In this document: in pieces, positions 40 to 17,123 of the stretch | Position numbering within the stretch: the first letter of the stretch is position 1 | How the letters are laid out: every line of letters starts with the position of its first letter | Assembly (NCBI GenBank): GCA_050294955.1 | Contig: JBNKOV010000005.1 | Coordinates: 1-27,826, forward strand | Length of the DNA: 27,826 nucleotides | Direction: 5' to 3' | Source of the DNA: Holophagae bacterium | GTDB taxonomy: Bacteria; Acidobacteriota; Holophagae; Acanthopleuribacterales; Acanthopleuribacteraceae | Notes under the pieces: generated by a model | The model's input: the letters and a program-made list of their open reading frames with translations, nothing else | Database searches by the model: none | Told to the model about the DNA's origin: nothing | Program-made: the position numbers and the translations under genes

Positions 40-894
40 ATGAAAAATAGATTATTGTTGCTGGGCGCTTCGGGCAAGATGGGCACAGCTTTAAGCCGGG
101 CCTTCTCTGATGATTATGATGTTATCCCAAAAACATCCGCTCATTTTGACGGTGCAGACGGAGCCGGAGTCACGGCTCTTATTGAGGAGACCAGGCCTCA
201 TTTGATTGTGAATGCGGTGGCCCTGCTGGGCATTGATCGCTGTGATCAGGAACCCGAATTGGCTTTTAAGTTGAATACCCTTTTACCCAAGACCTGTGCG
301 ATTATGGCAAAAAAAGTGAATGCTTGTCTGATTCACTTGAGCACAGCGGCAGTTTTTGATGGGAAGAAAAACGATTTCTACCATGAGAGTGACATCCCTT
401 CGCCTCTCAACATTTACGGGGCAACCAAGCTGGCAGGTGACGCCATGGTCAAGGCTCACCTGAAAGAGCACTACATCTTCCGTATTCCCATAATATTCGG
501 GCCATCTTCCCGGGACGATCAATTCACGGAAACCATGCTCAAAAGAGCGGTCGATGGTCAACCTCTCAGGATAGCCGATGACGTATATGATTCGCCCTCC
601 TATTCATTGGATGTGGCAGGAGAGATCAGGCAAACTGTGGTTAAACAGTCACCCTTTGGTTTATACCACATTACCAATAGGGGCAAGGCTTCGCTATATG
701 AACTGGTGTCCTATTTTGTTGAAAAAGCCGGATTGAATGTTCCTGTTCAGAGGGCTTCCTATCGAGATTTCCCTTTTGTAGGGCTAAAAAACACCAACAC
801 GCCCATGACAACCATCAAATTAAAACCATTAAGGTCCTGGCAACGGGCGGCTGATGACTATCTTGCGCTTCTTCGCAAGGAGAATCGGTTATAG
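40..894 (+). CDS. rmlD: dTDP-4-dehydrorhamnose reductase family (RmlD-like) NAD(P)-dependent sugar-nucleotide reductase
   Basis: ATG at 40 with AAGGAGGG Shine-Dalgarno 7 nt upstream. N-terminal Rossmann motif LLLGASGKMG. The segments PHLIVNAVA..DRCDQEPELAFKLNT and SPLNIYGATKLAGD (YxxxK catalytic motif) and GLYHI align with E. coli RfbD/RmlD from memory. The 3' end overlaps the convergent tkt C-subunit gene by 6 nt. Confidence 0.75.
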   Translation: MKNRLLLLGASGKMGTALSRAFSDDYDVIPKTSAHFDGADGAGVTALIEETRPHLIVNAVALLGIDRCDQEPELAFKLNTLLPKTCAIMAKKVNACLIHLSTAAVFDGKKNDFYHESDIPSPLNIYGATKLAGDAMVKAHLKEHYIFRIPIIFGPSSRDDQFTETMLKRAVDGQPLRIADDVYDSPSYSLDVAGEIRQTVVKQSPFGLYHITNRGKASLYELVSYFVEKAGLNVPVQRASYRDFPFVGLKNTNTPMTTIKLKPLRSWQRAADDYLALLRKENRL

Positions 895-1818
895 ATTTTT
901 GAGTTTCTTCAAAATTCTTGAAACAACCGAATCGCGGTCCAAGCCGAAGCGGGCAAAGAGGTTTTCTTGCCGGCCATAAGTATCTGGAAACATATCGGGT
1001 ATGCCAATACGCTCAAAGACTCCTTTTGGATGACGGGTGCCCTCGGCTACACATTCCGCTACGGCAGAACCGAGCCCGCCGATGACATTGTGTTCCTCCA
1101 GAGTAAAAACACATCGGGCTTTTTCTAGGCACGGATCCAGGGTTTCCCTGTCAAGAGGTTTTACGGTGTGAAGGTGGACAATGCCCGTTGTAATATTGTG
1201 TTTGGATAGATCTTCCGCAACACCCAAGGCAACTTGAAGGGTTACGCCCGTGGTAACCAGGAGCACATCACCAGGCTCTTTGTGAACAACGGCTCTGCCT
1301 AACTCGAAGGGGTCTTTGGCTTTGGAGACAATGGGATCTCCGCCTCTGGCTACTCTGATGTAAACGGGACCGGGATAGTCTCTTGTGGCCAAAACGCCTC
1401 GTTCCATTTCATCTGCGTCGCAGGGTGCGAAAACGGTCATGTTGGGAAGAGCTCGCATTAGAGCAATGTCGTCAATAGCTTCGTGAGTTGGACCCAATGG
1501 CGCATAGACCAGCCCACCGCCGTTAGCATAGAGCCGTACCTTATAATTCCCCAGGCAAACGTCCATGGCTATCTGGTCATAACATCTTCGAGTTAAGAAG
1601 GTTGCAATGGTATTCACATAGGGAACCTTGCCGTTCATGGCCAGGCCAGCCGCCATGCCAATCACATAAGCTTCCGAAATTCCTTCTACAAAGAATCGGT
1701 CCGGGTGGTTTTCCTGAAACTGGGAAAGAGTGCCCTTGCCTACGTCAGATCCAACAAAAACCACGTCATTGTGCTGGTTTGCAAGGGCGTAAACCGCCTC
1801 CAATCCTCGTTTACGCAT
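889..1818 (-). CDS. Transketolase, C-terminal (pyrimidine-binding/C-terminal domain) subunit of a split transketolase
   Basis: The translation (VFVGSDVGKGT..., FVEGISEAYVIGMAAGLAMNGKVPY, THEAIDDIALMRALPNMTV) is typical of split TktB. The ORF track extends to an upstream ATG at 1860. I chose the ATG at 1816-1818 (MRKRGLEAVYAL...), which overlaps the TAA of the upstream N-subunit gene in an ATGCGTAA arrangement typical of split tkt pairs. Confidence 0.8.
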   Translation of the reverse strand: MRKRGLEAVYALANQHNDVVFVGSDVGKGTLSQFQENHPDRFFVEGISEAYVIGMAAGLAMNGKVPYVNTIATFLTRRCYDQIAMDVCLGNYKVRLYANGGGLVYAPLGPTHEAIDDIALMRALPNMTVFAPCDADEMERGVLATRDYPGPVYIRVARGGDPIVSKAKDPFELGRAVVHKEPGDVLLVTTGVTLQVALGVAEDLSKHNITTGIVHLHTVKPLDRETLDPCLEKARCVFTLEEHNVIGGLGSAVAECVAEGTRHPKGVFERIGIPDMFPDTYGRQENLFARFGLDRDSVVSRILKKLKNL

Positions 1819-2629
1819 GGTCACGCTCCAAGTATTCAATAATTTCATTAATTTCTTCATCGGTTATTTTTGACTTGTGGTGCCAGGCCAGGTTGCCTTC
1901 CATAAATGGCACGCCCTGGCCTTTAATTGTGTGGCAAATGACGGCTGAAGGTTTGCCGGCGGAAAATGGCAGGCTCTTTAAAATGCCAATCAGAGATTCT
2001 GGATCATTCACCATGTCCGCTTCTCGAGTCTCGAACCCAAAGGCTCGCCATTTATCGGCAAAGGGCTCCATATTACAGACATCTCGGGTCTCGCCAAAGG
2101 ACATGTATTTATTGAAGTCCACAATCACGGTCAGGCTGTCAAGCCTATGTTTAGATGCGGCAAGGGCTGCTTCCCACACGGAGCCTTCATTGCACTCACC
2201 GTCGCCGAGCACCACGAAACTACGGTAGGATCGACCGTCCATGCGTGCTGCGAGTGCGAAGCCTACTGAAATGGGGAGTCCGTGACCCAGGGAACCCGTT
2301 GGCGCTTCAATGCCTGGAACCTGTTCCTCCGGGTGCCCGCCCAATATGCCGCCCGGCTTGCAAAAGGTCTTGTAGTGATCTTTTGAGAAATAACCCTTGT
2401 CCGCCAAAATAGCGAATTGGGCCATGCACCCATGGCCTTTGCTCAAAATGAACCGGTCTCTATCAGGCCAATCTGGCTCTTGGGGCCTGATGTTCATGAT
2501 ATGGTCGTAGAGGGCGACCAGAATTTCCACAATAGAAAAGGCTGGCGCTATGTGGCCTCTTCGGCCATGAACAACCATCTCCATGACTTCTCGCCTTATG
2601 GCGGCGCATCTTTTTTGAAAACTGCTCAA
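1811..2629 (-). CDS. Transketolase, N-terminal (thiamine-diphosphate-binding) subunit of a split transketolase
   Basis: AAIRREVMEMVVHGRRGHIAPAFSIVEILVALY, GHG and GDGECNEGSVWEA motifs match the TPP-binding transketolase N-terminus. The start codon is TTG at 2627-2629 (reverse complement), with an AGGGGGA Shine-Dalgarno 6 nt upstream. An internal ATG (MEMVV) would remove conserved N-terminal residues. Confidence 0.8.
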   Translation of the reverse strand: MSSFQKRCAAIRREVMEMVVHGRRGHIAPAFSIVEILVALYDHIMNIRPQEPDWPDRDRFILSKGHGCMAQFAILADKGYFSKDHYKTFCKPGGILGGHPEEQVPGIEAPTGSLGHGLPISVGFALAARMDGRSYRSFVVLGDGECNEGSVWEAALAASKHRLDSLTVIVDFNKYMSFGETRDVCNMEPFADKWRAFGFETREADMVNDPESLIGILKSLPFSAGKPSAVICHTIKGQGVPFMEGNLAWHHKSKITDEEINEIIEYLERDHA

Positions 2630-2645
2630 CAGTCTATCCCCCTGA

Positions 2646-4274
2646 CTATGCTTTGTATAGATCGTCTATCGAACGGGTTTCCGCCAATAACCGTCTGGCG
2701 GTTTGAAGGCGGGTGTTTATTAGTTCCCGTCCCAACTGTTGGGAACCTGCAAACTCCTTTCGCATTCTTTCGCCCCTGGTGAGGACATTGAGAACAATGA
2801 GAATCCACTCCAGTCCCACCAGATCGCACACGGCTAGCAAGCGGGCTTCCAATCCGGCGTCCTGTTTGCGGTGGTTAATGAATCCTTTTATGGTTTTCAT
2901 CCTCTGGTTTATGGGTTGATTATTGCCAACGTGGCGCAAATAATCACATAATAACTTTACCGGGTCGTCCCAGCCCGCATATTCGAAGTCTAGAATAATC
3001 AGGTTTCCAAGATGATCTCTCAGGCAATTATGGAGACCAAAATCTGAGGGACTGGGGAAGTGAAGTTCCAATGGCAATGGGGTTTCCAGGTCTAAATTCT
3101 TCTTCTGGCAGAAGGACTCGAAGCGACCAAGCGCTTTGTAGTAGGCTGGCTTGAATTGGTTCTTTAGAAATTCTGCCGCTTCATGGTTGTCGCCAGCTTT
3201 AGCGCAGGCTGATTCTAAATCCGCCAGGCGGCGGTCCGTATGTTTACGAAAATCGTTCAAATGCAGTCTGGCATGGGCTGCGCTTGAAATGTCTTCTCGC
3301 GCCAGTTTATGGCCCGTCTCGTCCAATTTAATCAAAAAGGGGAGGAAGTCAGCCCGGGTGGGTGGTTGTCCCTCAATGTATTCCATTAGAAAACCCCTTT
3401 GCAGACGTTTCAGCGGCGCTGGTGAAGATCCAGGTTGATGTCTGTGCAGCATTTTCAGGAATTTCCATTCACAATCAAGCCTTGGTCTATCATCTAAGGC
3501 ATTCTCAAAATACGTTTTAAGCACTCTGCGCGCCCCACTCTGGAATTCCAGGCAAAGGATAAGATTGTTGCCGCCTCGTTTGATGGTGGACCACTTTGTT
3601 AATTTCTCATTGGCGCTCCATAATCCCGGCAGATTAAGCGCAGTAATCTGGTGGTAGTTCGAACATTGGGGAATGTTGGGATGGTTCTCTCGTCCGAACA
3701 AAATGGGCCAGGTTGATTCTGGAAAGTTGGGGTGTTCGGGAACCGACGGCAAATCGTCAATAAAGACATGAGGCTGGAGGCTTTTGATTTTCTGTACCTT
3801 TTCGGTTCTCGTGCTTTCAAAAAAGATCTCACCTCGTCTAAACCCGAGCCCGCCATCCGCCATGCTCATAAAAAATTTGCGTCGGGCCAACGTGTCCAAA
3901 GCGTACTCTCTCAAATTTACGGTGGGATCTATGTTGGAAGTTGTGGTTTTATGACTCACAATGAATATTTCACAGCCCTGCTTCCTTGCCTGGCGAATAA
4001 ATTCTTCAAAACCTTTAAAGAGTCTGGCTTCATGAATGCGCTCCCCGAAAATCAGGGCTTGTATTTTCTGCCAGCGAATCTCGCCTTCCTCTGGGCTGCC
4101 AGCGACCCGTATCAGGCCCTGTTTTATGGACTGTTTTTCCTCTCCCACTGACTCCTGCAACCAGTCTTTTTCTATTGCAAGGCGCCTGGCAAGGGGTAGA
4201 TATTCCAAGATGGTATGATCCAAATCCAGGCCAATTCTAAAGGGCGTTTGAGGGGAAGTTGGGTTATTTATCAT
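2646..4274 (-). CDS. Bifunctional-looking fusion: N-terminal HAD-superfamily phosphatase domain plus C-terminal choline-kinase/aminoglycoside-phosphotransferase (APH/ChoK)-like kinase domain
   Basis: HAD motif I GLDLDHTI at residues 14-21 and motif IV VFIDDLPS. The C-terminal part carries HNCLRDHLGNLIILDFEYAGWDDP, which resembles the ChoK/APH catalytic loop plus the IDFEY motif. ATG at 4272-4274. No strong Shine-Dalgarno. Confidence 0.6.
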   Translation of the reverse strand: MINNPTSPQTPFRIGLDLDHTILEYLPLARRLAIEKDWLQESVGEEKQSIKQGLIRVAGSPEEGEIRWQKIQALIFGERIHEARLFKGFEEFIRQARKQGCEIFIVSHKTTTSNIDPTVNLREYALDTLARRKFFMSMADGGLGFRRGEIFFESTRTEKVQKIKSLQPHVFIDDLPSVPEHPNFPESTWPILFGRENHPNIPQCSNYHQITALNLPGLWSANEKLTKWSTIKRGGNNLILCLEFQSGARRVLKTYFENALDDRPRLDCEWKFLKMLHRHQPGSSPAPLKRLQRGFLMEYIEGQPPTRADFLPFLIKLDETGHKLAREDISSAAHARLHLNDFRKHTDRRLADLESACAKAGDNHEAAEFLKNQFKPAYYKALGRFESFCQKKNLDLETPLPLELHFPSPSDFGLHNCLRDHLGNLIILDFEYAGWDDPVKLLCDYLRHVGNNQPINQRMKTIKGFINHRKQDAGLEARLLAVCDLVGLEWILIVLNVLTRGERMRKEFAGSQQLGRELINTRLQTARRLLAETRSIDDLYKA

Positions 4275-4316
4275 GAAAATTTAAATGTCATCCTGTATTT
4301 AGAATGAATTCCTTCG

Positions 4317-5843
4317 TTATTTTAACAGGGTTACCATGTATTTGAACAGGGCTGTGGGTGAGATAGCCTCGCGGTTGCACATGATTCGAACATCAAGCGC
4401 TGCTGCTGCGGCTCCAGCAAAAGCAGCCATTTCCGGGGCCATTCCGCCGCCCAGACAGATACCAGAAATAGACAGGAATGCATCGCCCGCACCAACACGG
4501 TCTACAACTTGGATGGACAAAGCCGGAACCTGGTAGGAAAGGCGTTCCTGCATGCTTCTCATTACAAGGCCTCTTGCTCCCATGGTCGTGGTGATGAATG
4601 AAGCTTGCACCCGTTCGGCGACCATCTGGGCCACCTCTTCTAAAGGGCCGTACCGATTGTGGACAGCCAAGCGAAGCTCTGGCTCGTTTAGGGAGACATA
4701 ATCAACTCGGGGGTAGCGGTTTACGGTGTGATAACCCCTGTTGCCACTGTTGATTTGAGTATTTACAGCCAAAAATTTTGCATGTTTGGAGATGACCTGG
4801 GCCATGGCGTCTGTGATGAAGCCGTTTCCGAAATCGGGAACTATAACAGCATCAAAGCTCCCTAGATTCCTCTCCAACCAATGGCAAATTTCCAATTCCA
4901 GCTCCCTCGCCGGCGGCTTGTCTTCATAGTCATAGACTTCAAAGAGCTTTTGGGCGTCGGGGTCTACGTACCGGCTTTTGAGGATGGTGGGGGCGTCTTC
5001 TCGAAAAAAGAAAATTGGATCGATATTGGGAGCCAGTTTAGATCGAATAAAGGACTCGTAGCTGTTCCTTTCGCCAAGGCCGGTCACCAGGGTTGTTTTT
5101 GAGCAAAACCCTGAGATATGATTGGCTACAGCCAGAGAGCCCCCTGCAAAAAGCTCAGAGCTTTTGTGTTTCACCGCAAAAATATTGCCTTTTCCGGTCT
5201 GGCCCAAATTCTCCGTGTAATTGTACTCATCTACTATGGCGTCTCCCACCACGCAAATATTCAGGTTTTCAAGAGCCTTGATGGCGTCTATAACCTGGTC
5301 GCTGGTGTAGCGTTCTCCGAAATGGCGAAGAAAATCTTTAACGTCTGAAGGAAAGACACTAAAGTGAGCATTCAGCAACTTGCTGGAACTGAAGGTGATC
5401 TCGTCTGTATAAACGGTCTGCCCGCCAATTTCCTCCACAGCATTGCGTTCCTTCAGAATATTCCCGGTAATGTCGTCACCGGGTTTTTGATAATCGCTTC
5501 CTTTGGCGAAGATATGTGGCTTCACTGCCCTGATTGCTGGGATAGCGGTGACTTCTCGTATCAGGCCGACGTAATCAACGCATTCCAGGGCGGCCATATT
5601 TTCACAGCGTAGCATTTCATTGAATACCGGGCGGCCCGGCCCCTTGCTTACAAAGGCATCTGCCGTTAAGGTCACGAAAAGCGCGTCGCCTTCTTCCCTC
5701 GCTCGCTGTAAATGTCGGATATGGCCAACGTGGATGAGGTCGAAGGTTCCGTGACAGAGCACCAGTTTCTTGCCCTGGTTGCGAAGCTCGTCGGCTTTTT
5801 TTTCTAAAAGGTCCAGCTCCAATATCTTGGATTCGCTAGTCAT
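4317..5843 (-). CDS. hldE: HldE-like bifunctional heptose 7-phosphate kinase / heptose 1-phosphate nucleotidyltransferase with reversed domain order (N-terminal cytidylyltransferase-like, C-terminal pfkB kinase)
   Basis: N-terminal LVLCHGTFDLIHVGHIRHL...GDALFVTLTAD...KGSDY aligns with RfaE/HldE domain II (HxGH nucleotidyltransferase). The C-terminus carries the pfkB/ribokinase signature DRVGAGDAF. The ATG overlaps the gmhA stop in an ATGA arrangement. Confidence 0.8.
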   Translation of the reverse strand: MTSESKILELDLLEKKADELRNQGKKLVLCHGTFDLIHVGHIRHLQRAREEGDALFVTLTADAFVSKGPGRPVFNEMLRCENMAALECVDYVGLIREVTAIPAIRAVKPHIFAKGSDYQKPGDDITGNILKERNAVEEIGGQTVYTDEITFSSSKLLNAHFSVFPSDVKDFLRHFGERYTSDQVIDAIKALENLNICVVGDAIVDEYNYTENLGQTGKGNIFAVKHKSSELFAGGSLAVANHISGFCSKTTLVTGLGERNSYESFIRSKLAPNIDPIFFFREDAPTILKSRYVDPDAQKLFEVYDYEDKPPARELELEICHWLERNLGSFDAVIVPDFGNGFITDAMAQVISKHAKFLAVNTQINSGNRGYHTVNRYPRVDYVSLNEPELRLAVHNRYGPLEEVAQMVAERVQASFITTTMGARGLVMRSMQERLSYQVPALSIQVVDRVGAGDAFLSISGICLGGGMAPEMAAFAGAAAAALDVRIMCNREAISPTALFKYMVTLLK

Positions 5844-6430
5844 AGGCTGGCAGCCTCCGTTTTGAAGCGGTCGAGAAGATGATGAAGCAGGAATAGGTGG
5901 CCTATTTCAACAAAACCGTAATCAACGGCGTCGAGCCAGAGATTAATAACGCCCTTCTTCCTTAATGGATTGTCCGCCTTGAATCCACTTAAGGTAATGG
6001 CCTGGCCGCCCTTTCCAACGATTGCGTCCACAGCTTTGCAGATATTGGCGGACTGGCCCGAGCTACTAATGGCAATGAGCATATCGCCTGGTCTCGCCTG
6101 GTTCTCCACGATGCGGGCATAGGCGTTTTCGTAGCCATAGTCATTGGCCATACAGGTCAAAAGGGATGGATCGTGTAGAGCAAAGGCTCTAATCTTCCCG
6201 CAGTTTACGAAATCGTTTACCATATGAGCCGCCACCGCGGCGCTACCGCCATTTCCCATGATATACAGGCAGCAATGATTCTTTTTAACAGTTTCAAGAG
6301 TATCCAGGCAAAGTTGGATGCCCTGTTCGGTTTCCAGTCTGGCTCCAGAGGCGTTGGTGATGGCGACATCGGTTAGCACAGATTGGAACTGACTTGTTTT
6401 TGTAGAAAAAACCGTGGAAGGCTCTGTCAT
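5840..6430 (-). CDS. gmhA: D-sedoheptulose-7-phosphate isomerase (SIS domain, GmhA)
   Basis: GNGGSAAVAAHMVNDF and ISSSGQSANI SIS-domain motifs match GmhA. Size 196 aa. ATGA overlap with the upstream epimerase gene. Confidence 0.85.
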   Translation of the reverse strand: MTEPSTVFSTKTSQFQSVLTDVAITNASGARLETEQGIQLCLDTLETVKKNHCCLYIMGNGGSAAVAAHMVNDFVNCGKIRAFALHDPSLLTCMANDYGYENAYARIVENQARPGDMLIAISSSGQSANICKAVDAIVGKGGQAITLSGFKADNPLRKKGVINLWLDAVDYGFVEIGHLFLLHHLLDRFKTEAASL

Positions 6431-7419
6431 TTCGAATCCCCCAGATATTTGAACCAGGAAGCGGTTGCCTCTTCAATGGAGCCGGAATCCCAAACGGGCG
6501 CGTCTGACCAGTCTTTAATATGGTTGAGCATGACTTCAACTCCGTCTTCAAAAGAGACTTGCGGCTTCCAGTTCAACAACCTCTTGATTTTTGAAATATC
6601 GGCAAAAGTACAATCGGGCTCGCCGGGCCTTTTGGGCACATAAACAACTTCGCCGCCCAGTAGCGTTACAAGGTGGTTTACGCTGTAATGCCCTCCGCTG
6701 CCAACGTTCATTGCCTCACCTGAACATGAAGATTCCGCGGCGGCCAGGAATGCGGACGCCACATCACTTACAAAAGTGAAATCTCTGGACTGCTTGCCGT
6801 CGCCAACCACAGTAAAGGGTTTGCCGCCCAACTTCTGAGCAAGGAAAACGCCGAAAACGGCGCCATAGGCTCCGGTCGTTCTGGATCTTGGGCCAAACAC
6901 GTTAAATAGGCGTAAGGACAGGGCCGGCATATGGTAGACCTTCGCCCAGTGCATGACCAATTCTTCACCCAGGTACTTGCTCAATGCGTAGGGATATTGG
7001 GGTTGGATAGGCGTTGTTTCGGGTGTTGGAAACACATTGGGTATGCCATAACAGGAGGCTGAGGCTGCATAGAGAAATCGTTTCACCTTTGCGTCCCGGG
7101 CAGCCTCCAACACGTTAAATGTGCCTGTCACGTTGTTGTGGTAATAGGCTTCGGGCTGTTCAATGGAGGGCACAATATCTGCCAGGCCAGCGAGATGGAA
7201 CACCCAGTCCACGCCGTCCATAATGGGTTTTAATGAAGCCTTATCTGTGACATCTGCCTTATGGAATGAAAAATGAGGATGTTCTTTGAATTGAGCCACA
7301 TTGGCGAGACGACCCGTCACAAGACTGTCTACACTACGAACCTGATGGCCGTGTTCAAGAAGACATGCGGTGAGGTGACTGCCGATAAAACCCGCGCCGC
7401 CTGTTACTAGAGCTTTCAT
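6427..7419 (-). CDS. NAD-dependent sugar-nucleotide epimerase (extended SDR; HldD/GalE/UXS-like), first gene of the heptose operon
   Basis: MKALVTGGAGFIGSHL Rossmann motif, SASCYG and the catalytic YALSK (YxxxK). It lacks the TDE dyad of 4,6-dehydratases, so it is an epimerase- or decarboxylase-like enzyme rather than a dehydratase. Confidence 0.7.
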   Translation of the reverse strand: MKALVTGGAGFIGSHLTACLLEHGHQVRSVDSLVTGRLANVAQFKEHPHFSFHKADVTDKASLKPIMDGVDWVFHLAGLADIVPSIEQPEAYYHNNVTGTFNVLEAARDAKVKRFLYAASASCYGIPNVFPTPETTPIQPQYPYALSKYLGEELVMHWAKVYHMPALSLRLFNVFGPRSRTTGAYGAVFGVFLAQKLGGKPFTVVGDGKQSRDFTFVSDVASAFLAAAESSCSGEAMNVGSGGHYSVNHLVTLLGGEVVYVPKRPGEPDCTFADISKIKRLLNWKPQVSFEDGVEVMLNHIKDWSDAPVWDSGSIEEATASWFKYLGDSK

Positions 7420-7590
7420 GTATGAATCCTTTCAACTCAAGAGAAGAGAGTTGGGGATGAAAAGCCCTATGCTGAGGAGCTCAGGTTATCCCCTTTGTTT
7501 CAGAGTGCTTATCGGTCAGGTTCATCACAAGCTTTAGCAAGAGCTTGGAAAAAACGCAGAGCCTCCATGATCACTGGATCATGCAGGCGC

Positions 7591-7619
7591 ATTTTAGCCT
7601 AAAAACACGACAAAACCAA
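7591..7619 (-). promoter_or_regulatory. Candidate sigma70 promoter for the heptose operon: -35 TTGGTT and -10 TAAAAT with a 17-nt spacer, on the minus strand
   Basis: Reverse complement of 7614-7619 is TTGGTT and of 7591-7596 is TAAAAT, with a 17-nt spacer, about 165 nt upstream of the epimerase ATG. This rests on sequence pattern only. Confidence 0.2.
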
Positions 7620-7736
7620 AGGGCCAAGCCCATGTTTTCTCAAAAGATCTATTTCACCTGAGCCAAATGCAGCTTTTGACTGCAAAGAAACCAGGCCAAA
7701 AAATTCAGGAAATAGGATCTCCCAAACCCTTTGGGG

Positions 7737-9454: not shown

Positions 9455-12400
9455 CTATGATGGTTTGTTCTGACGTCGCACCTGGGGCTTGGGCGGGGGT
9501 TTTGGTTTGGGCTCTGGTTTAGCGCTCTCTACTTCTGGCGCGGTCATTTCCTTGAGGCGGCTGATGACCCATTGTTGCGTGCTCAGGGACCGTTCCATTG
9601 CGGTCTGCAGGCCCAAAAGCTTAGTATCCTGTTGGGCCATGCCTTCTTGAAGCGGCTTGAGCCATTGCTCCATCACATGAAACTGTTTTTCCAGCAAAAT
9701 GAGCATGGCCTGACGTTCTTCTCTTCCAGTTGCTTTGGACATTTTGAGGGTGGCCTTCAAGGCGGTGAGCGTTTCCTCATCTATGCCGCCAGATCGGGCT
9801 GGCGGGTTCTCCACGAACTTGCTGAACATTTCCTTCATTGAAGTGGAGTCCAGGTCGCTATCGCTAGCTGACGCCTTTTTAACGGATATCGCTTTAACCA
9901 TTTGCGCTGCGATCTTGCGTAGGGCGAGAAGCGTTGCTTCGTCCAATCCGCCGCTTTTAGGTGTTTCAAGAGCCTGCACGACTCTGTCTGTCATCACTTT
10001 AATCGCGTCGAGCGTGTCCCGATTGTCATTTTCGTTTCTACTTTGTTCCAGAATGTCTTTGATCGTGGAGAGCATGACCTCATCTCCACTCTTCCCGCTC
10101 AGGCGCTCGACGGCATTGGCCAGGGCTCCTTGAATGCCCTCCAACCCCTGGCCGAGTCCCGCTAACTGCAAAATGGCCTGGCCCATGCGATCATCGCCAG
10201 CCGCAGTGAGCGACAGGTTTCTGGCGAACGTGGATTTAATGTCCTCCCATCGCTTAATCTCCTCTTCGGTCATTTTCCCAGTAAGTTCCTTGAACTTGAG
10301 CAGGTTGGCCTCAGCGCCCGACGTTAGCGTCTGGGACTCGTTTTCATAATGGGAGTGAATGAGACTTTCCAGCTCCTCATCGTTCATGATGGGAAGCACC
10401 TTTTCTGCAATCTTATTCATATTGCGATAGGAACCTTGAAGCTTAAAGGATGGTTCGGTGCGGTAGGCGTCCGCCTGGGCCGCCGATTCGATATACTGGA
10501 GGTTTACTGCCAGAATAACATCCCTCACCCGAAGCAATTTGCTCAAAACATTCACGAAATCGTTGATTTCTTCGCCTGAGTAATTTCCCTCCAGTTCTAC
10601 ACCCTCACGAGAGCCCTTTTCTGCAATTTTTATCAGGCTATATACGTCTTTCTGACTGCGAGACATCAACTTGTTCAGGGTGGCGTTGGAGGTGAGACAG
10701 TTTTCTATATAGCTCATGCGGAACACGTCTTCCGTATCGCCGATGATATCGCCAAGGTTATAGGTGTCTGCACGGTTGGCCAACATGTCCGGGATCTGAA
10801 ATTTCTCGCCGCTTTCCGTGTAAGGGTTGCCCGCCATCACCACGGCCACTTTTTTCCCCCGTAGATCGTAGGTTCTGGAGACCCCTTTGTAGACCCCTTC
10901 AATTTTCCGTTGACCGTCGCAAAGTGAAATGAATTTTTGGAGGAGTTCCGGGTTGCAATGCTGAATGTCGTCGAGATAAATCATGATATTGTCGCCCATC
11001 TCGAAAGCCAGATTCAACTTTTTCAGCTCGTCCCGAGCGGAAGCATTGGGCGCCTCTGCTGGATCCAGGGAGGTTACCTGGTGACCAATGGCCGGGCCGT
11101 TGATTTTCATGAAAATGACGCCCAAACGATCCGCAACATATTCCATTAGAGTGGTTTTACCATAACCGGGCGGGGAAATGAGCAATAGCATGCCCATGAG
11201 GTCGGTGCGCTTCTTTTCTCCAACAACTCCCACTTGCTTGGCCAGGTTATCCCCGATTAGAGACAGGTAAACCTTGTCTATAAGTTGGTTCCGGACAAAC
11301 GAACTGAGAATGCGAGGTTTGAATTCGTCCAACTTTAAATCTTTGCGGAAACCTTCGGCCAGTTGCTTTTTCAGGGCCAGGTATTCGATGAAGCGTGGAA
11401 CCTGCTCTGCCTCATAGGCTTCCAGTTTTTGGATGAAGTGATTGTAATGCAGGTGGTAAACGCCTTTTTTAATGAGGTTGTGGTCGCCGCGCAAGCCCTC
11501 AATGGTCTGACTCACATGGGTGTGAATAACCCGAGCCCGGTCGAAATGACCACAATAGTAAAGGGCGGCCGCCTCGTCGATATAATCCTCATTCTCCGGG
11601 GATTGATTTTTGACATAGGCTCCGATCCAGTCTCGTACAAGGAAAAATCGGTTGATTGGGTCGTCCTGCAAAGCGTCCGTGGTTTCGTCGAAATGCTTTC
11701 GGGACTTGTTTTCCCTGAGGTACTTATCGAACCCGTCGTAAACGTCTGAGGCATTTTGGCTAATGCAAAACCCCTCGCCGCTGGTGAGTTCCCTGAATAA
11801 GTAGACGGCGGCATCCTTGATCCAAATCTCTGAAAAAAGACCGGTTTCTTTTAAGAATCGACCGATTAACTGCTCCAATTCATTCACATAACTTTTGGAG
11901 CGTTCGGGATCAGGGAATAGCTTTTCTATGGCGCCTACGCCCCTGCACGTGCGTTCCAGGACGGTTTTTCGGTTCTGCGGGCACCAGGTCAACCAAAATA
12001 CAGCGGCGCATGCGCGGGCTTCGCTGGGATAGATGAGCAGGCCGATCTGACTATGCAACTTGAGGAGGGCTACCAGCATCAGGGCGGCGTCCTGGTCATG
12101 AACGCCCTTGGCGTAACCCTCTTGGAATCTTGGACCCATGAATTTTTGGATCTCTTTTTGCATTACTTCTCGGGTTTGATTGGAAGCTGCCCTAATCTGG
12201 CCATCTCTTTGCAAATGAAGCAGATACTGATAGGCCAGGTACTCGCCGCGATAGACCTCCCTGCTCTCCGATAGGTATTCACGGTCCCAGAGATCTTGAG
12301 TTTCCAAAAATTGAGGATCTGCTATTTTTTCGAAGAAATTGGTGCCGGTGAGGTGATAGTATTGACCGTCTTCCCGTGCGACAATGGTGAGGGCCAGATC

Positions 12401-12925
12401 CTGGGTGTTAACGGAGAATCGGTGTTCTCCCAGCCGAATGACATTGTCTCCGCCTTCGAAAAGATCCTGGCGATCCTTGAGTTGGCGCACGGCGTCTTCC
12501 CTGATGGTCTTTAACTGGCTCTGCAGGGAGTCGGCCTTCACCGAGTCGTCAAGGTCCTTTAATTGGGATACAATGTCTCGCACTTTTTCGATCATGAGAT
12601 CGCCAGCAAAATAGCCGTTGATCTCGTTAATCGTTTTGAAATTGCCAATCCTGTTTTTGATGCCCTTCAGGATGCGATCTGCCGCACTCATCAGTGCGCC
12701 TGTCCGCTTGTTGCGGGCCTCCACCAGGTTTAGCTTTTTGGCTTCAAAGGCGTTGTAGATCTCATCCCGCTTCTCGGCAAGCTGAACCGCAAACTCGTCA
12801 AAATCTGCGAATCTTCCTTCCAGCTCTTCTACCTGCACCATAAGCCGAGTGAGATAATTATCGCATTTTTCCGGTTCATCGCAGACATCCAGGTAGTTGA
12901 TCATGGCCTGGCTGAGCAGCTTCAT
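9455..12925 (-). CDS. Large (1156 aa) protein with a central MoxR/McrB-class AAA+ ATPase core and long non-ATPase N- and C-terminal regions. Last gene of the flotillin-linked operon.
   Basis: Walker A LLISPPGYGKTTL at about aa 583-592. Walker B and sensor MIYLDDIQHCNPELLQKFISL. VVMAGNPYTESGEKFQIPDMLANRAD is equivalent to the MoxR segment ATQNP..E..LPEA.LDRF. The C-terminal tail is Pro/Lys-rich: KPEPKPKPPPKPQVRRQNKPS. The ATG at 12923-12925 overlaps the TGA of the upstream gene (ATGA). Confidence 0.65.
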   Translation of the reverse strand: MKLLSQAMINYLDVCDEPEKCDNYLTRLMVQVEELEGRFADFDEFAVQLAEKRDEIYNAFEAKKLNLVEARNKRTGALMSAADRILKGIKNRIGNFKTINEINGYFAGDLMIEKVRDIVSQLKDLDDSVKADSLQSQLKTIREDAVRQLKDRQDLFEGGDNVIRLGEHRFSVNTQDLALTIVAREDGQYYHLTGTNFFEKIADPQFLETQDLWDREYLSESREVYRGEYLAYQYLLHLQRDGQIRAASNQTREVMQKEIQKFMGPRFQEGYAKGVHDQDAALMLVALLKLHSQIGLLIYPSEARACAAVFWLTWCPQNRKTVLERTCRGVGAIEKLFPDPERSKSYVNELEQLIGRFLKETGLFSEIWIKDAAVYLFRELTSGEGFCISQNASDVYDGFDKYLRENKSRKHFDETTDALQDDPINRFFLVRDWIGAYVKNQSPENEDYIDEAAALYYCGHFDRARVIHTHVSQTIEGLRGDHNLIKKGVYHLHYNHFIQKLEAYEAEQVPRFIEYLALKKQLAEGFRKDLKLDEFKPRILSSFVRNQLIDKVYLSLIGDNLAKQVGVVGEKKRTDLMGMLLLISPPGYGKTTLMEYVADRLGVIFMKINGPAIGHQVTSLDPAEAPNASARDELKKLNLAFEMGDNIMIYLDDIQHCNPELLQKFISLCDGQRKIEGVYKGVSRTYDLRGKKVAVVMAGNPYTESGEKFQIPDMLANRADTYNLGDIIGDTEDVFRMSYIENCLTSNATLNKLMSRSQKDVYSLIKIAEKGSREGVELEGNYSGEEINDFVNVLSKLLRVRDVILAVNLQYIESAAQADAYRTEPSFKLQGSYRNMNKIAEKVLPIMNDEELESLIHSHYENESQTLTSGAEANLLKFKELTGKMTEEEIKRWEDIKSTFARNLSLTAAGDDRMGQAILQLAGLGQGLEGIQGALANAVERLSGKSGDEVMLSTIKDILEQSRNENDNRDTLDAIKVMTDRVVQALETPKSGGLDEATLLALRKIAAQMVKAISVKKASASDSDLDSTSMKEMFSKFVENPPARSGGIDEETLTALKATLKMSKATGREERQAMLILLEKQFHVMEQWLKPLQEGMAQQDTKLLGLQTAMERSLSTQQWVISRLKEMTAPEVESAKPEPKPKPPPKPQVRRQNKPS

Positions 12926-14973
12926 TTGAGCATTGTATTCGGCAGCCCCTTCGGATTTGCCATTTCCCTGCTGCGGTTCTTGAGCTCTGCCCGTATTTGA
13001 TTCAACCGAGTGTAAATATCTGATATAGCGTCAATTATTTCGGTAGTTTTTGTCGGGTCGTCTATCTTCAGATTGCTGACGATTTCAATCAAAAGCTCCA
13101 GCTCAGATCCGTTCTTGGCAAGGGCTTCTTCGATCTCTTTAGCTTCGCTCACCTTCTCGAAGGACTCAACAGCTCCAGCCTGATCGGTGATCCGGTCCTC
13201 ATAGGGTTGAAGCGCGTTAGGACTTAATAGGAAATTAACGCAGTCAGACGACAGTTTGTCGCGTTGCTCCTTTACCAGATCATTCAGGTTCTCAATGAGT
13301 TGTGTGTCGGCATAGCGCAATTCGCCTGCAGAAATGATTTCGCCGCTAATCACACGAAGCTCTGATAGTTTGTGGACAAACTCTTCTATGGACTCGAACC
13401 TGGAGCGTTTGATATGGTTTAGCAGTTCGTGAGTATTGTCAGCTACGGTCTGGGTCTGCTGTTTGGTTGCTCGCTTTACCTTTTGAACCTTGTCAAACTC
13501 ATCAACGGCGGAACCGGCAGCCTCGCGAATCCCAGCCAGCGCCTCAGCCAAATTAAAGGCCTCTTCGTTTGCGAGCCAGAACCAGGCTTCGCTGACGTCC
13601 CCGGCTTTTTTCACGATGTCGATATACAGAGATGCGTAGATTTCTTCCCGTTCAATGAGATTCAATATCTCATTGCACTCTGCCATAGCCCTCACAATAT
13701 CTTTGTTCCCAATTTTATACAACGGGTTGTCTGATGAGGCGCCAACCTCGAAACCGTCACTCACATAGGGGGTTTGCCAGAATTGCACTGTGTGGTGTTT
13801 CTGGGGTTCTTCCTCGGCCCGGAAGTACACCAGCTCGCCACTATTAAAGATAGAGTAACCCTCGCAAATTATAGGGGTTGCTACCTCTTGACTGATGAGG
13901 TTGTAGGAGAGCAGCACATAGTGGCCCTGTTCTCGCTGGTAAAAGCAGTATAGATAGTCTTCCCCATTTGGAGAGGCCACCCTACAATCGAACATCATGT
14001 CGGAGAAATCGGTGTCAAAAATTTTGTGGCGGCCTGTGGCCAGATAATAACCATTGGGAAAAATAATCCCGTGATCGTCAGGCAGGAAGACACAGGTGCT
14101 TTCAATTGCGTCTATTCGAGTTACAGTCCCCAGTTTTTCGTTAAATACAAAATAACGATACTGCTTTTCCTGGTAGGGCTTGATCTTTAACAGAATGAGG
14201 TGGCCCACAATCGTGTAATAGAATTCACCGTCGTCCAGATTCTGATCGGGGTCGTCCACAGGTTCGTTGTAAATGCCAACCCCGTCTCGGGTGTTGTCAT
14301 CTATTTTAATAGTGAGATCGCCGCCAACTGTTTCTACAAAAACCCTGTCCTCTATAGAGATATGGGGATGTTCCCCAGAGCGGTGATAGTCGCGGTGGGT
14401 GCGCTTCCAAACGAAATCGTGTTGGGTTGGATACTTGAATTCCGCATCGCTTCGGTTGTCGATGTAAGTTATTGAATCGTCTTTGATGAGCCACTTGAAG
14501 GTCTTGATGTCTGTGGCGGATTTTCCCACACGGAAGACCATAAACAGATGTGGCCCGATTTGGGTGAACTTTGCGAAGATCGTGTTCTTGTAATAGCGGT
14601 AGAGATTTTCAAAGTCTTCGTGGAACTTGGGGTTGTTCAACAGTTCAAGGTCTCTTTTTTTGAACTGGTGATCCACAAAATCATAGATTGAAAAAACATC
14701 GTGCAGCTTGATCTCGGATCGCAAGCCAACCTGAACGTTGTAGCCGAATATGAAACGAGTCCCCAATGGGAAAAGGTCTCTGGGCGTACAGTTGTTGTCG
14801 GTGTTAATCCGATCACTGCCAAGAAGTTTGGTCTCAACCGACCCGAAGACCTCTTTTCGAGCCTCATTCAAGGAGTTCAAGCGGTCCTTAAGCTCCTTGC
14901 CCAAGGTGTTCAATCTTCCGCGAATTATCTCGTAAGCGCCCCCTTCAAGGGTAACTTCTTCTGTACCTTCCAT
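12922..14973 (-). CDS. 683-aa conserved hypothetical protein translationally coupled to the AAA+ protein. It has a beta-rich central region, an alpha-helical C-terminal third and no recognisable catalytic motif.
   Basis: Long intact ORF. Its stop overlaps the downstream start. It lies 83 nt downstream of flotillin in the same orientation. I found no Walker, vWA-MIDAS or nuclease motifs by eye. Confidence 0.6.
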   Translation of the reverse strand: MEGTEEVTLEGGAYEIIRGRLNTLGKELKDRLNSLNEARKEVFGSVETKLLGSDRINTDNNCTPRDLFPLGTRFIFGYNVQVGLRSEIKLHDVFSIYDFVDHQFKKRDLELLNNPKFHEDFENLYRYYKNTIFAKFTQIGPHLFMVFRVGKSATDIKTFKWLIKDDSITYIDNRSDAEFKYPTQHDFVWKRTHRDYHRSGEHPHISIEDRVFVETVGGDLTIKIDDNTRDGVGIYNEPVDDPDQNLDDGEFYYTIVGHLILLKIKPYQEKQYRYFVFNEKLGTVTRIDAIESTCVFLPDDHGIIFPNGYYLATGRHKIFDTDFSDMMFDCRVASPNGEDYLYCFYQREQGHYVLLSYNLISQEVATPIICEGYSIFNSGELVYFRAEEEPQKHHTVQFWQTPYVSDGFEVGASSDNPLYKIGNKDIVRAMAECNEILNLIEREEIYASLYIDIVKKAGDVSEAWFWLANEEAFNLAEALAGIREAAGSAVDEFDKVQKVKRATKQQTQTVADNTHELLNHIKRSRFESIEEFVHKLSELRVISGEIISAGELRYADTQLIENLNDLVKEQRDKLSSDCVNFLLSPNALQPYEDRITDQAGAVESFEKVSEAKEIEEALAKNGSELELLIEIVSNLKIDDPTKTTEIIDAISDIYTRLNQIRAELKNRSREMANPKGLPNTMLK

Positions 14974-15015
14974 GCGCTGCCTGTCCCCAAATAATATTTA
15001 AATCCATTGCCAGAG

Positions 15016-15054
15016 CTCCAAAGAGGCGACCGCCAGAACGGCCGCCCTTTGGAG
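15016..15054 (-). promoter_or_regulatory. Strong intra-operon RNA hairpin 2 nt after the flotillin stop codon (8-bp and 8-bp stems separated by a bulge, 6-nt loop, one G-U wobble on the minus-strand transcript)
   Basis: The minus-strand RNA reads CUCCAAAG-GGCGGCCG-UUCUGG-CGGUCGCC-U-CUUUGGAG. The outer 8-bp pairing is perfect. There is no clean U-tract after it, so it is more likely an attenuator, processing or stability element than a full terminator. Confidence 0.5.
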
Positions 15055-15056
15055 AT

Positions 15057-17120
15057 TTATTTAAAGAGCAGGGAAGCGGACTGGCCGCCCAGGCCCAATT
15101 TTTCGAGGATGCCCATGCCGTGTTTCAGCAATCCTGTGGTCTCCTCATTATCGGATAGGGAGATCATCCGGCTGACCAGCGCTGAAAGTGTGAGGTTCTT
15201 CACGTCTTCAGAGGTCATGCCGAATTGGCCTACGAATTTCTTTAACTGGCTTTTGAAGTATTCCGGATCTCCGTTAAAGAAGGTTTCCTTCACATCGCTG
15301 AGCACTTCACTGTTGCTAACGAGGCGATCCACTGCTTTGCCTTGAGTTATGGTGGATGTAATCTTGTCAAAGAAGGCGCCGTCTCCGCCTACGATATCGA
15401 TCTTGGCCGTTCTCAATGCTTCCTGAATGATGGCTGCCTGGGAGGCGGCGATATCTTTCTGTGCGAGGATTTTGGCAAGTTCAATTTCCTTGGCCTGGTT
15501 CAAGCGCAATTTAAATTCTTCGTGCTCGCGTCCAACGCCGTCCAACTTCTTCATGGCGTCGGCCTTCTTCTCAATGCCAAGCGCCTCTGCGTGACTCTTG
15601 CGCTGGAGGACATTGGCTTCTGCTTCGCCTTGTTTCTCAATGGCCACAGCATGGGCCTCCAGGCCTTTGGCTTCCGCTAGCGCCTTCTTCTCATGGATGG
15701 AGGCCTCAACATTGCCCATTTTCTCCGACGCGTCCGCTTTGGCGGTCATCACCTCGGCTTCTGCAAGACCAATAGCGGCTTCTTCGGCAGCCTTGGCCTC
15801 CGCCATCAGCTTTCGAGCTTCTGCTTTTAAGTCGGAAGCTTTGCGGTCCGCCTCTGCTTCCACTACGTTTTGCTCAGCTTTCAATTCTGCGGCCCGCTTG
15901 CCGGCTTCTGCGGCCTTTACCTGCCGCAGAGCTTCCTCTTCGGCCTGGGATGATGCCGCCGTTATGGCTACGGCCTTGTTTCGATCAGCTTCGGCAGTGG
16001 CCTGGGTGTCTTTGATTTTCTCCTGCTCTTCTACAACGGACCGTTCCACCGTGACTCTTTCCCGGATGATTTCTTGGATGTTCTTGCGCTCTTCTTCCAG
16101 AGCGCGTTCTTTTTCAATACGAGCCAGCTCCACAACGCGCTCTCGCTCGTTGACTTCCAGAAGGCGGTCTTTTTCAACCCGTTCCTTCTCAACAGCGCCG
16201 GTTTTTTCTTTGCTCATCTGGGCCACAAGCACCTGACGGGCCTTGTTCTCTTCGGCAATTTGAACTTCTTCTTCGGTGGCGATGCGCGCCTGTTCGGCCT
16301 TCAGGCGTTCTTCCTGTTGAACCTTCATGGTTTCAGCAGTTTCACGAGCCTTGGTCGATGCGATCTCCCTTCTCTGACGTTCCTCGGCCTCAGCCTGTTG
16401 ACGCTCCAGTTCCAGGATCTGTTCTTTTGCTTCAACATCTTGACGTTTTAGGGATTTATCTCGTTCACGCTCGATCTTGTTGGCTTGAACCCGTTGGGTG
16501 GCGGTAAGATCGGTGATCTTTTTTATGCCTTCTGCATCCAAGATATTAAATGGATCCAGCTCGGTCATGGGTGTTTGTTCCAGATAATCAATGGCGGTGT
16601 CTTCAAGGATATAGCCGTTCAGGTCGGTGCCAATGATCTGTTGCACTTCGTCTTTGAATTCCCTACGAGCATTGTACAGATCGACAAAATCGAATTTCTT
16701 GCCCACTGTTTTCAGGGCTTCGGAAAATTTAGCGTCGAACAATTCCACCAGTGTGGTCTGATTGGAGGCGCGATCACAGCCAATGAGTTGGGCTACCTTT
16801 AAAACGTCTTCAATGGTTTTGTTCACTTTCACAAAGAAGACGACTTTGATGTCCGCCCGCATGTTGTCTCTGCAGATAAGACCTTCAGAGCCCTGTCGAT
16901 GAATTTCAATGCGTTTCACCGAAATGTCCATGGTTTCGGCTCGGTGAATGACGGGAATCACCACCAGTCCGCTGAAGTTCACCTTGGCGCCGCCGAATCC
17001 GTTTCGAACAATAGCTTTGCCCTGGTCCACCTTACGGTAGGAGTTGACCAGGATAAACCCCAGTCCAAACAGAAATATCAGGCCAATGACCAGGCCAATT
17101 ATTCCAACTTGTTCTAACAT
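15057..17120 (-). CDS. Flotillin / YqiK-like SPFH (band 7) domain membrane scaffold protein with a long Ala/Glu-rich coiled-coil
   Basis: N-terminal transmembrane segment (IIGLVIGLIFLFGLGFILV) followed by an SPFH core. The region EAEA...AEAKAAEEAA is an extended, strongly charged coiled-coil typical of flotillins. ATG at 17118-17120 with a GGGAGAG Shine-Dalgarno. It lies 3 nt after the NfeD-like stop. Confidence 0.85.
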   Translation of the reverse strand: MLEQVGIIGLVIGLIFLFGLGFILVNSYRKVDQGKAIVRNGFGGAKVNFSGLVVIPVIHRAETMDISVKRIEIHRQGSEGLICRDNMRADIKVVFFVKVNKTIEDVLKVAQLIGCDRASNQTTLVELFDAKFSEALKTVGKKFDFVDLYNARREFKDEVQQIIGTDLNGYILEDTAIDYLEQTPMTELDPFNILDAEGIKKITDLTATQRVQANKIERERDKSLKRQDVEAKEQILELERQQAEAEERQRREIASTKARETAETMKVQQEERLKAEQARIATEEEVQIAEENKARQVLVAQMSKEKTGAVEKERVEKDRLLEVNERERVVELARIEKERALEEERKNIQEIIRERVTVERSVVEEQEKIKDTQATAEADRNKAVAITAASSQAEEEALRQVKAAEAGKRAAELKAEQNVVEAEADRKASDLKAEARKLMAEAKAAEEAAIGLAEAEVMTAKADASEKMGNVEASIHEKKALAEAKGLEAHAVAIEKQGEAEANVLQRKSHAEALGIEKKADAMKKLDGVGREHEEFKLRLNQAKEIELAKILAQKDIAASQAAIIQEALRTAKIDIVGGDGAFFDKITSTITQGKAVDRLVSNSEVLSDVKETFFNGDPEYFKSQLKKFVGQFGMTSEDVKNLTLSALVSRMISLSDNEETTGLLKHGMGILEKLGLGGQSASLLFK

Positions 17121-17123
17121 TGC

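Follow-up and report, generated by a model that had tools for sequence, protein, structure and literature searches.

The subject of this analysis is a cluster of seven genes at positions 40-7419 of a 27,826-bp contig (JBNKOV010000005.1, assembly GCA_050294955.1) from a Holophagae bacterium of the Acanthopleuribacteraceae, the whole of that contig being the window under study. The cluster is an ordinary member of an uncharacterised, widespread cassette that probably makes a nucleotide-activated, modified higher-carbon sugar, and it represents a new variant relative to the heptose pathway. The conserved core of the cassette is a short-chain dehydrogenase (SDR1), a GmhA-like sugar isomerase (SIS) and a fusion of a nucleotidyltransferase with a PfkB kinase (CT-PfkB), followed by a two-subunit thiamine diphosphate (ThDP) enzyme that is either of the E1 type or transketolase-like (TK-like). 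A TK-like pair brings with it a fusion of a HAD phosphatase and a choline kinase-like (ChoK-like) kinase, and it is with this pair, and not with the HldE-like protein, that the fusion goes. The TK-like enzyme probably does not make sedoheptulose-7-phosphate, the role given to it in an earlier, sequence-only reading of this DNA, and a two-carbon addition to a heptose-type sugar is the more likely reaction.

The first gene of the operon encodes SDR1 (330 residues, 6427..7419, minus strand), an extended short-chain dehydrogenase/epimerase with GxxGxxG, YxxxK and an epimerase-type SASCYG motif, and without the Asp-Glu of the 4,6-dehydratases. It matches the Pfam families Epimerase (212 bits) and GDP_Man_Dehyd (219 bits) and, among NCBIfam models, galE (181.6 bits, cut-off 262), LegB (173), RmlB (160) and HldD/TIGR02197 (112, cut-off 274.6), with UDP-glucose and UDP-GlcNAc 4-epimerases, Pal and UXS as its best matches in the PDB. 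By these scores SDR1 appears nearest to the GalE/WbpP/UXS-type enzymes and not to HldD, and the earlier assignment of it as the HldD-type epimerase that completes a heptose set is not borne out. An orthologue (>400 bits) lies directly upstream of the SIS and CT-PfkB genes in most related loci. The second gene (196 residues, 5840..6430, minus strand) encodes a SIS-domain sugar-phosphate isomerase of a GmhA-like subfamily, which scores 79.6 bits against TIGR00441 (gmhA), under the equivalog cut-off of 209.45, and has GmhA structures as its best PDB matches (E ~1e-16). At positions 64, 68, 175 and 183 of Burkholderia pseudomallei GmhA the isomerase reads H-D-E-H rather than the H-E-Q-H of GmhA, such that H64 and H183 are kept while E68 has become D and Q175 has become E. 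Where GmhA has D61 it has V, other members of the family having I or M there, and its SSSGQS preserves the phosphate-binding SxSGxS loop. Of the 55 closest cassette orthologues (>=100 bits), 52 have this signature and two more differ only at position 183.

The third gene (508 residues, 4317..5843, minus strand) encodes a cytidylyltransferase-like nucleotidyltransferase domain (CT; CTP_transf_like, 5349..5843) in its N-terminal part and a PfkB-family sugar kinase domain (4317..5291) in its C-terminal part. The CT domain carries HxGH as HVGH, with FSSS replacing ISTT, and scores 55.9 bits with PF01467 and 104.3 bits with rfaE_dom_II (cut-off 181.5), the next family being TagD at 35; its nearest PDB entry is 5x9q (E 1e-13). 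The PfkB domain gives 50.7 bits with PF00294 and 97.6 bits with rfaE_dom_I (cut-off 345), ahead of ribokinase at 38, and matches the heptose-7-phosphate kinase structure 4e84 with an E of 9e-6. The fusion as a whole reaches 140 bits against the HldE model NF008454, where the cut-off is 521, and its domains stand in the reverse order to those of HldE, with CT at residues 30-122 and PfkB at 195-485. This swap, already pointed out from the sequence, is real, the CT-then-PfkB order being invariant in a 507-residue family of constant length that has 3,365 matches, at 56-73% identity across phyla. In 20 aligned members of the family the PfkB GG and GAGD residues, the transferase HxGH residues and the Asn and second Glu of NxxE are all invariant. 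Across phyla CT-PfkB is far more conserved than the adjoining HAD-kinase fusion (30-44% identity), and this conservation suggests either a very strong constraint or repeated horizontal transfer of the trio.

GmhA is thus the best family for the isomerase and the two HldE domains are the best for PfkB and CT, well ahead of others, which makes a heptose-type substrate the best guess, although the scores are far below the cut-offs and the proteins do not appear to be canonical orthologues. What, then, separates the cassette from the established pathway to ADP-L-glycero-beta-D-manno-heptose? The likeness lies in the GmhA match, in the kinase and nucleotidyltransferase halves with their best matches to HldE domains I and II, and in the presence of an SDR in the operon. 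The differences are the reversed fusion, the altered isomerase signature, the lack of a GmhB-type phosphatase and an SDR that is not HldD, together with three extras in the form of a ThDP enzyme, a ChoK-like kinase and an RmlD-like reductase. The earlier view of a dedicated sugar-nucleotide cassette outside the textbook ADP-L,D-heptose route is upheld, and no heptose-like protein of the cluster attains the curated score of GmhA, HldE, GmhB or HldD. The same scores bear on the possibility that these are simply the normal lipopolysaccharide-core ADP-heptose genes and the sole transketolase (TK) of the organism, clustered by chance, for which it can be said that the Acidobacteriota are diderm and that the window is a single contig of the genome. 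However, with all of the heptose-like proteins at 25-60% of their equivalog cut-offs, the domain order reversed, the TK-like active site altered as described below, and a sporadic distribution that takes the cassette into variable O-antigen or pseudaminic-acid loci, onto a plasmid and into archaea, such a housekeeping role is very improbable indeed.

The TK-like pair is the main point at which the sequence disagrees with the earlier reading. The N-subunit (Transketolase_N, the ThDP/PP domain; 272 residues, 1811..2629, minus strand) scores 138.7 bits with PF00456 and 212 bits with the split-gene TK of Carboxydothermus hydrogenoformans (6yak), with GH, SKGH, GHP, GDGE..EG and WH aligned, and it keeps the canonical TK histidines and the GDG...N motif for Mg-ThDP. 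The C-subunit (889..1860 as the longest open reading frame, ORF, minus strand) matches PF02779 and PF02780 (Transket_pyr and Transketolase_C), and its best PDB match is the same two-subunit enzyme (6yaj/6yak; 194 bits); the ThDP-activating Glu, R318 and the GPTH His are all retained. Yet alignments to 6yaj, human TK and DXS place Gly, Gly and Leu at human S345, H416 and D424 (E. coli S385, H461 and D469), and the series E. coli R358, S385, H461, D469 and R520 reads R, G, G, L, R in the window, which is not the sugar-phosphate-binding set of a TK. Among about 70 cassette orthologues S385 is replaced by G or R, H461 by G, D469 by L and R520 mostly by K, the exceptions being a few outliers and partial ORFs, whereas the true split TK of C. 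hydrogenoformans retains its Ser, His and Asp. The claim that this enzyme supplies sedoheptulose-7-phosphate is thereby undercut. A housekeeping TK was also considered and was rejected on the basis of the altered active site and of a tight synteny, for of 84 loci spread over many phyla about 69 have the HAD-kinase gene next to the pair. The synteny bears out the earlier suggestion of a dedicated pair.

Two samples of loci were compared, the 84 just mentioned being anchored on the HAD-kinase protein and a second set of 82 on CT-PfkB. In the second sample, 30 loci have a pyruvate-dehydrogenase-type E1 alpha/beta pair in the slot after SDR1-SIS-CT/PfkB, 17 have a TK-like pair there and 35 have neither, these last being mostly short contigs, two of which carry only a HAD-kinase fragment at the contig end. 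Within this sample the HAD-kinase occurs only with TK-like pairs and in none of the 29 E1-only loci. When the active-site columns are set side by side, the reading is S-E-H-D-(H/Q)-R in true TKs and G-E-G-L-H-K in most cassette TK-like subunits that accompany a HAD-kinase, the window and its two nearest relatives ending in R. For TK-like subunits that have no HAD-kinase beside them it is G-E-G-Q-H-K, and for the E1-beta subunits x-E-G-Q-H-H. The altered signature of the cassette's TK-like enzyme is thus found in part in the E1-type enzymes as well. Pyruvate-dehydrogenase-type E1 enzymes use pyruvate as donor; if that holds here the product would be a 1-deoxy-ketose, which an aldose-ketose isomerase could not use, and thus the simplest role that the TK-like and E1 enzymes could share would be a two-carbon transfer at a later step, not the supply of sedoheptulose-7-phosphate. 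The E1-type sister cassettes come from Nitrospira, Methylophilaceae and many metagenome contigs (for instance L088 10001-13581 and L089 10001-13581, with 28 further loci), and in about 20 of the 30 a radical-SAM/SPASM gene lies directly upstream of the SDR gene.

These results have to be weighed against a self-contained pathway to a nucleoside diphosphate (NDP)-heptose, in which the split TK would make sedoheptulose-7-phosphate, SIS would isomerise it, PfkB would phosphorylate C1, the HAD half would remove the 7-phosphate in the manner of GmhB and CT would activate the sugar, leaving SDR1 and the RmlD-like enzyme to epimerise or reduce it and the ChoK-like kinase to add an extra phosphate. In its favour are the GmhA and HldE assignments of the trio, the canonical N-subunit, the retention of R318 and the GPTH His in the C-subunit, and a cassette (L128) with a canonical TK. 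Set against it are the loss of the S385, H461 and D469 equivalents in essentially all of the cassette orthologues and the E1 pair that fills the same slot in 30 of the 82 sister cassettes, the presumed product of which the isomerase could not use.

The HAD-kinase fusion (542 residues, 2646..4274, minus strand) bears on the same question. Its HAD half (3675..4274), N-terminal in the fusion, has DxDxT, S107, K159 and D173-D174 and a helical C1-type cap, and its nearest structure is a 5'(3')-deoxyribonucleotidase-like protein, with GmhB ranking only 50th. The HisB-N/GmhB family of HAD proteins is cap-less (C0), and the capped fold does not belong to it. The C-terminal half (2646..3674) has the bilobal fold of the choline/ethanolamine kinases and APH, with a catalytic D...N loop and a Mg-binding Asp, and its residues K253, E269, SPSD411FGxHN416, D429FEY and GWDDP follow the choline/ethanolamine-kinase motif layout. 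The AlphaFold model of the fusion is confident (pLDDT 93), while a sequence search of the PDB gave nothing even at E = 1. In a 30-member alignment the HAD motifs (DxDxT, Ser, Lys and DD) and those of the kinase (Lys253, Glu269, D411...N416 and D429) are invariant, and in about 13 loci the two halves are separate adjoining genes. A word-indexed search returned 695 full-length matches to the family, and an exhaustive search gave 4,344, 3,034 and 334 cluster representatives (50% identity clustering) at E <= 1e-3, 1e-10 and 1e-30, respectively. The family is present in at least 567 species genomes, its carriers including Leptospira interrogans, L. noguchii and L. alexanderi, Chlorobium, relatives of Magnetospirillum, Verrucomicrobiota, Elusimicrobia and Woesearchaeota.

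Would the HAD half serve as the GmhB phosphatase of a self-contained heptose pathway? A phosphatase is needed there, because most cassettes have no GmhB-like gene, such a gene being present in only 7 of the 84 HAD-kinase-anchored loci and 2 of the 82 CT-PfkB-anchored loci. However, in those seven loci it stands alongside the fusion, the fold is capped and not GmhB-like, the fusion tracks the TK-like pair rather than the HldE-like protein, and the E1-type cassettes do without any HAD. The assignment of the HAD as the GmhB step is accordingly not supported, and the claim of a complete NDP-heptose pathway has support in part, for the isomerase, kinase and nucleotidyltransferase, for which GmhA and HldE are the best families, and not for the TK, HAD and SDR steps. 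On balance the self-contained pathway is considered unlikely.

The kinase half raises a different alternative, since its closest structures, ChoK, LicA, homoserine kinase II and aminopropanol kinase, are those of small-alcohol kinases. In a Kennedy-type scheme a small free polyol or amino-alcohol would be the joint product of the TK-like enzyme, the HAD half and the reductases. Phosphorylation by the ChoK-like kinase and conversion by the CT domain would turn it into a CDP-alcohol for a phospho-substituent on a glycan, with SIS and PfkB feeding the same or a parallel route. Beyond the kinase motifs, such a scheme can draw on PF01467, which also covers CCT, ECT and TagD, on the match of CT-PfkB to PDB 3elb (ECT) at E 1.6e-11, and on the many related loci with a second nucleotidyltransferase (PF00483) beside CT-PfkB and a Zn-alcohol dehydrogenase. 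It is nonetheless improbable, as the CT domain has the PfkB kinase and not the ChoK-like one as its fusion partner, finds its best family by a wide margin in the HldE adenylyltransferase domain (104 bits versus 35 for TagD), and is kept within CT-PfkB by E1-type cassettes that have no ChoK-like kinase.

The model favoured here, at a little under an even chance, is one in which an NDP-heptose-type intermediate, predicted from family resemblance, is acted upon by SDR1, receives two carbons from the TK-like enzyme, is reduced by the RmlD-like enzyme and undergoes a phosphate step on the HAD-kinase. SIS, the PfkB kinase and the nucleotidyltransferase would convert a ketose phosphate, most likely sedoheptulose-7-phosphate from central metabolism, to the NDP-heptose-type sugar, following the logic of GmhA and HldE though probably as a separate enzyme lineage, and SDR1 would then carry out an NAD-dependent oxidation or epimerisation. 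The TK-like enzyme, which appears to keep the residues for dihydroxyethyl-ThDP chemistry and not those that bind an ordinary aldose phosphate, would pass a two-carbon glycolaldehyde unit to the sugar nucleotide after its oxidation, either branching or lengthening the chain, and in the E1 versions an acetyl/hydroxyethyl unit would be added instead. The resulting keto group would be reduced by the RmlD-like enzyme, while the HAD-kinase would serve a step specific to the TK version, and may either both phosphorylate and dephosphorylate the new primary alcohol, which would have no counterpart in the E1 products, or process the donor.

The RmlD-like NAD(P)H-dependent sugar-nucleotide reductase (284 residues, 40..894, plus strand) scores 196 bits with PF04321 and 187 bits with TIGR01214, under the cut-off of 224.05, and matches the RmlD structure 3sc6 at E 1.5e-35, while rmlA, rmlB and rmlC are all absent from the window. 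Its gene is convergent in two relatives (L085 and L086), as it is here, and co-directional orthologues are found in five other loci (L022, L045, L051, L040 and L122).

Several points weigh against the favoured model. The substrate assigned to every enzyme rests on family resemblance far below curated cut-offs, and the scarcity of a separate GmhB-like gene would also fit a HAD half that carries out the GmhB step. The TK of cassette L128, with its canonical H and D residues, could simply supply sedoheptulose-7-phosphate, and the TK-like and E1 enzymes could have been recruited into their shared slot independently and for different roles. The 20 kb on one side of the window cassette hold no glycosyltransferase, nor is there one next to the cassette in L085 or L086. 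Finally, full-text searches of the literature found no description of the cassette and no experimental work on any member.

A precedent is offered by the biosynthesis of yersiniose (YerE) and avilamycin (the E1-like AviB1/AviB2). There an SDR provides a keto sugar nucleotide, a ThDP enzyme, which may be a pair of the E1 alpha/beta type, attaches a C2 unit to it, and a reductase acts afterwards. Compared by description, these systems differ from the cassette in having 6-deoxyhexoses, rather than heptose-type sugars, as substrates and in having no HAD-kinase partner. The lincosamide octose route employs the transaldolase LmbR, the GmhA-like isomerase LmbN, the kinase LmbP, the phosphatase LmbK and the nucleotidyltransferase LmbO, and so resembles the cassette in placing a dedicated carbon-carbon bond enzyme of the pentose-phosphate type beside a GmhA-like isomerase, kinase, phosphatase and nucleotidyltransferase in order to reach an NDP higher-carbon sugar; it differs in using a transaldolase and not a ThDP enzyme, a GHMP kinase and not PfkB, and a GmhB-like phosphatase, and in lacking fusions. 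The split-gene TK of C. hydrogenoformans, for its part, shares with the cassette pair the two-subunit organisation, the ThDP motifs and the N-subunit histidines, and differs in the Ser, His and Asp of the Pyr domain, the replacement of which is partly as in the sister E1-beta subunits.

The arrangement of the window is shared with other genomes, contrary to the idea of a layout special to this one, and both the fusions and the RmlD-like neighbour are conserved in relatives and are not accidents. The order SDR-SIS-CT/PfkB-HAD/APH-TktN-TktC recurs in Acanthopleuribacter pedis (L003), in metagenome-assembled genomes of another member of the Acidobacteria and of Sulfuritalea (L007, L077) and in L085, and rearranged cassettes are present in L. 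noguchii, L. interrogans and L. alexanderi. The closest complete relative, L085, lies on a 5.4-Mb contig and has the exact layout of the window, the convergent RmlD-like gene included, with regulators flanking the cassette; 3' of the RmlD-like gene it carries TIGR04324 and TIGR04323 genes, a RES-Xre toxin-antitoxin pair and a methyltransferase. The RES-Xre (MbcT/MbcA-like) pair of L085 (15699-16642) is an insertion, with the LIC12192-family gene on one side of it and the methyltransferase on the other. In relatives the cassette is completed by a 2-oxoglutarate-Fe(II) oxygenase (TIGR04324), a LIC12192-family protein (TIGR04323) and a methyltransferase of 220 residues. The first two genes follow directly after the cassette in L085, L003 and L007, and stand with the HAD-kinase and TK-like genes in the Leptospira loci L001, L070 and L075. 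In a 60%-identical relative (L086) the cassette ends at the RmlD-like gene, beyond which lies a SusC/RagA receptor, and therefore the seven genes can stand alone.

Among the 84 HAD-kinase-anchored loci one recurrent partner is the class-I methyltransferase of 220 residues (59 loci); a second SDR, which was not counted separately, falls within a shared SDR cluster found in 61. Other partners are a Zn-alcohol dehydrogenase (34 loci), C-methyltransferases (29), a WbuC cupin (20), radical-SAM enzymes (19), RmlD-like reductases (about 19) and the pair of TIGR04324 oxygenase and TIGR04323 LIC12192-family protein (about 19), this pair and the Zn-alcohol dehydrogenase occurring as alternatives. The cassette is known only through the function-less TIGRFAMs/NCBIfam families of the 'sporadic carbohydrate cluster', as in the rfb region of L. 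interrogans, where the likeness is that TIGR04324 and TIGR04323 directly follow the same HAD-kinase and TK-like genes. The difference is that neither marker is present in the window by tblastn, the contig ending 39 nt from the cluster, and that both are absent beside the L086 cassette.

In A. pedis, and likewise on a Solidesulfovibrio plasmid, the cassette is flanked by NeuB and CMP-transferase genes. On the plasmid (L087; NZ_CP026539.1, S. carbinolicus pDCAR1, 133 kb, non-mobilizable) a pseudaminic-acid cluster (pseB/pseC/pseF, NeuB-like; 581-25928) encloses split HAD and kinase genes, TK-like genes, the CT-PfkB gene, a gene for an RmlD-like 'sugar nucleotide-binding protein' and one for a TIGR04372 glycosyltransferase. 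A general link to nonulosonic-acid synthesis was rejected, as only A. pedis has a NeuB homologue among the 84 HAD-kinase-anchored loci, and beyond these one occurs in the plasmid locus and in a single Nitrospira locus (L088) anchored on CT-PfkB.

With regard to the window itself, the ORF listing together with Pfam and NCBIfam scans confirms the seven genes with the domains and coordinates first listed for them, as a six-gene minus-strand operon (7419->889) and the convergent RmlD-like gene, every domain call being upheld. The SDR1/SIS and SIS/CT-PfkB junctions overlap by 4 nt each and are followed by gaps of 42 nt and 16 nt, while the convergent 3' ends of the TK-like C-subunit and RmlD-like genes overlap by 6 nt. 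In its longest form the C-subunit ORF overlaps the N-subunit gene by 50 nt (1811-1860), but the most likely start, judged by comparison with orthologues, is Met15 at nt 1818 (309 residues) instead of 1860, because the orthologues begin MRK and the overlap then becomes 8 nt, equal to that in L085; such an overlap suggests translational coupling. The contig edge cuts the cluster 39 nt upstream of the RmlD-like start, and as the window is the entire contig the sugar cluster is therefore truncated at its end. Further cassette genes may sit past this point, as do the TIGR04324 oxygenase, TIGR04323 protein and methyltransferase of L085, or may be missing, as they are in L086, and exact-sequence look-ups with the RmlD-like and CT-PfkB proteins found no leftward extension of the contig.

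The 317-nt intergenic region 5' of the operon (7420..7736, minus strand) is the presumed promoter site, although promoter and terminator scans there performed no better than on shuffled sequence and no promoter has been assigned. Directly 3' of the stop codon of an SNF-family transporter gene lies a terminator-like hairpin (7696-7734, minus strand) with an 18-bp stem and a T-rich tail, and this hairpin stands between the transporter gene and the sugar operon. The 20 kb on the far side of the operon are of a housekeeping nature, with the SNF transporter, an AAA/DUF3686 operon, RelA/SpoT, SecDF, Tgt and Usp. The Tgt protein has its closest matches in the Acidobacteriota and is 69% identical to that of A. 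pedis. The AAA/DUF3686 operon (9455-17735, minus strand) has four genes, which encode a 1156-residue AAA+ protein, a 683-residue protein with DUF3686 ('ATPase involved in DNA repair') and DUF7902, and proteins of 687 and 203 residues with no family match. PADLOC gave no match for it, such that any defence or repair function would belong to a system outside the catalogue.

What the cassette would mean for biology depends upon which of these routes it follows. Should the self-contained heptose pathway hold, the cassette would be a modest variant of heptose synthesis. A bolder proposal, which has to be put as doubtful, is that of an undescribed route in which an SDR-oxidised NDP-heptose is extended or branched by two carbons on a TK-like or E1-like ThDP enzyme to give a nine-carbon or C-branched sugar, with the fused phosphatase-kinase of the TK version handling the extra primary hydroxyl, and in which the product is a widespread, unrecognised component of surface glycans, the Leptospira O-antigen included. 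If the favoured model held, a very common cassette would make an unknown higher-carbon sugar by new thiamine chemistry on a sugar nucleotide, and functions would follow for the HAD-kinase fusion, the 507-residue reversed HldE-like protein and the TIGR04323 and TIGR04324 families. Relatives of NDP-heptose made in this way would join the molecules to be tested on the innate-immune sensor ALPK1. The cassette sits in the serovar-determining rfb region of pathogenic Leptospira, and the favoured model, if it held, would provide a biochemical handle on the structure of the Leptospira O-antigen.

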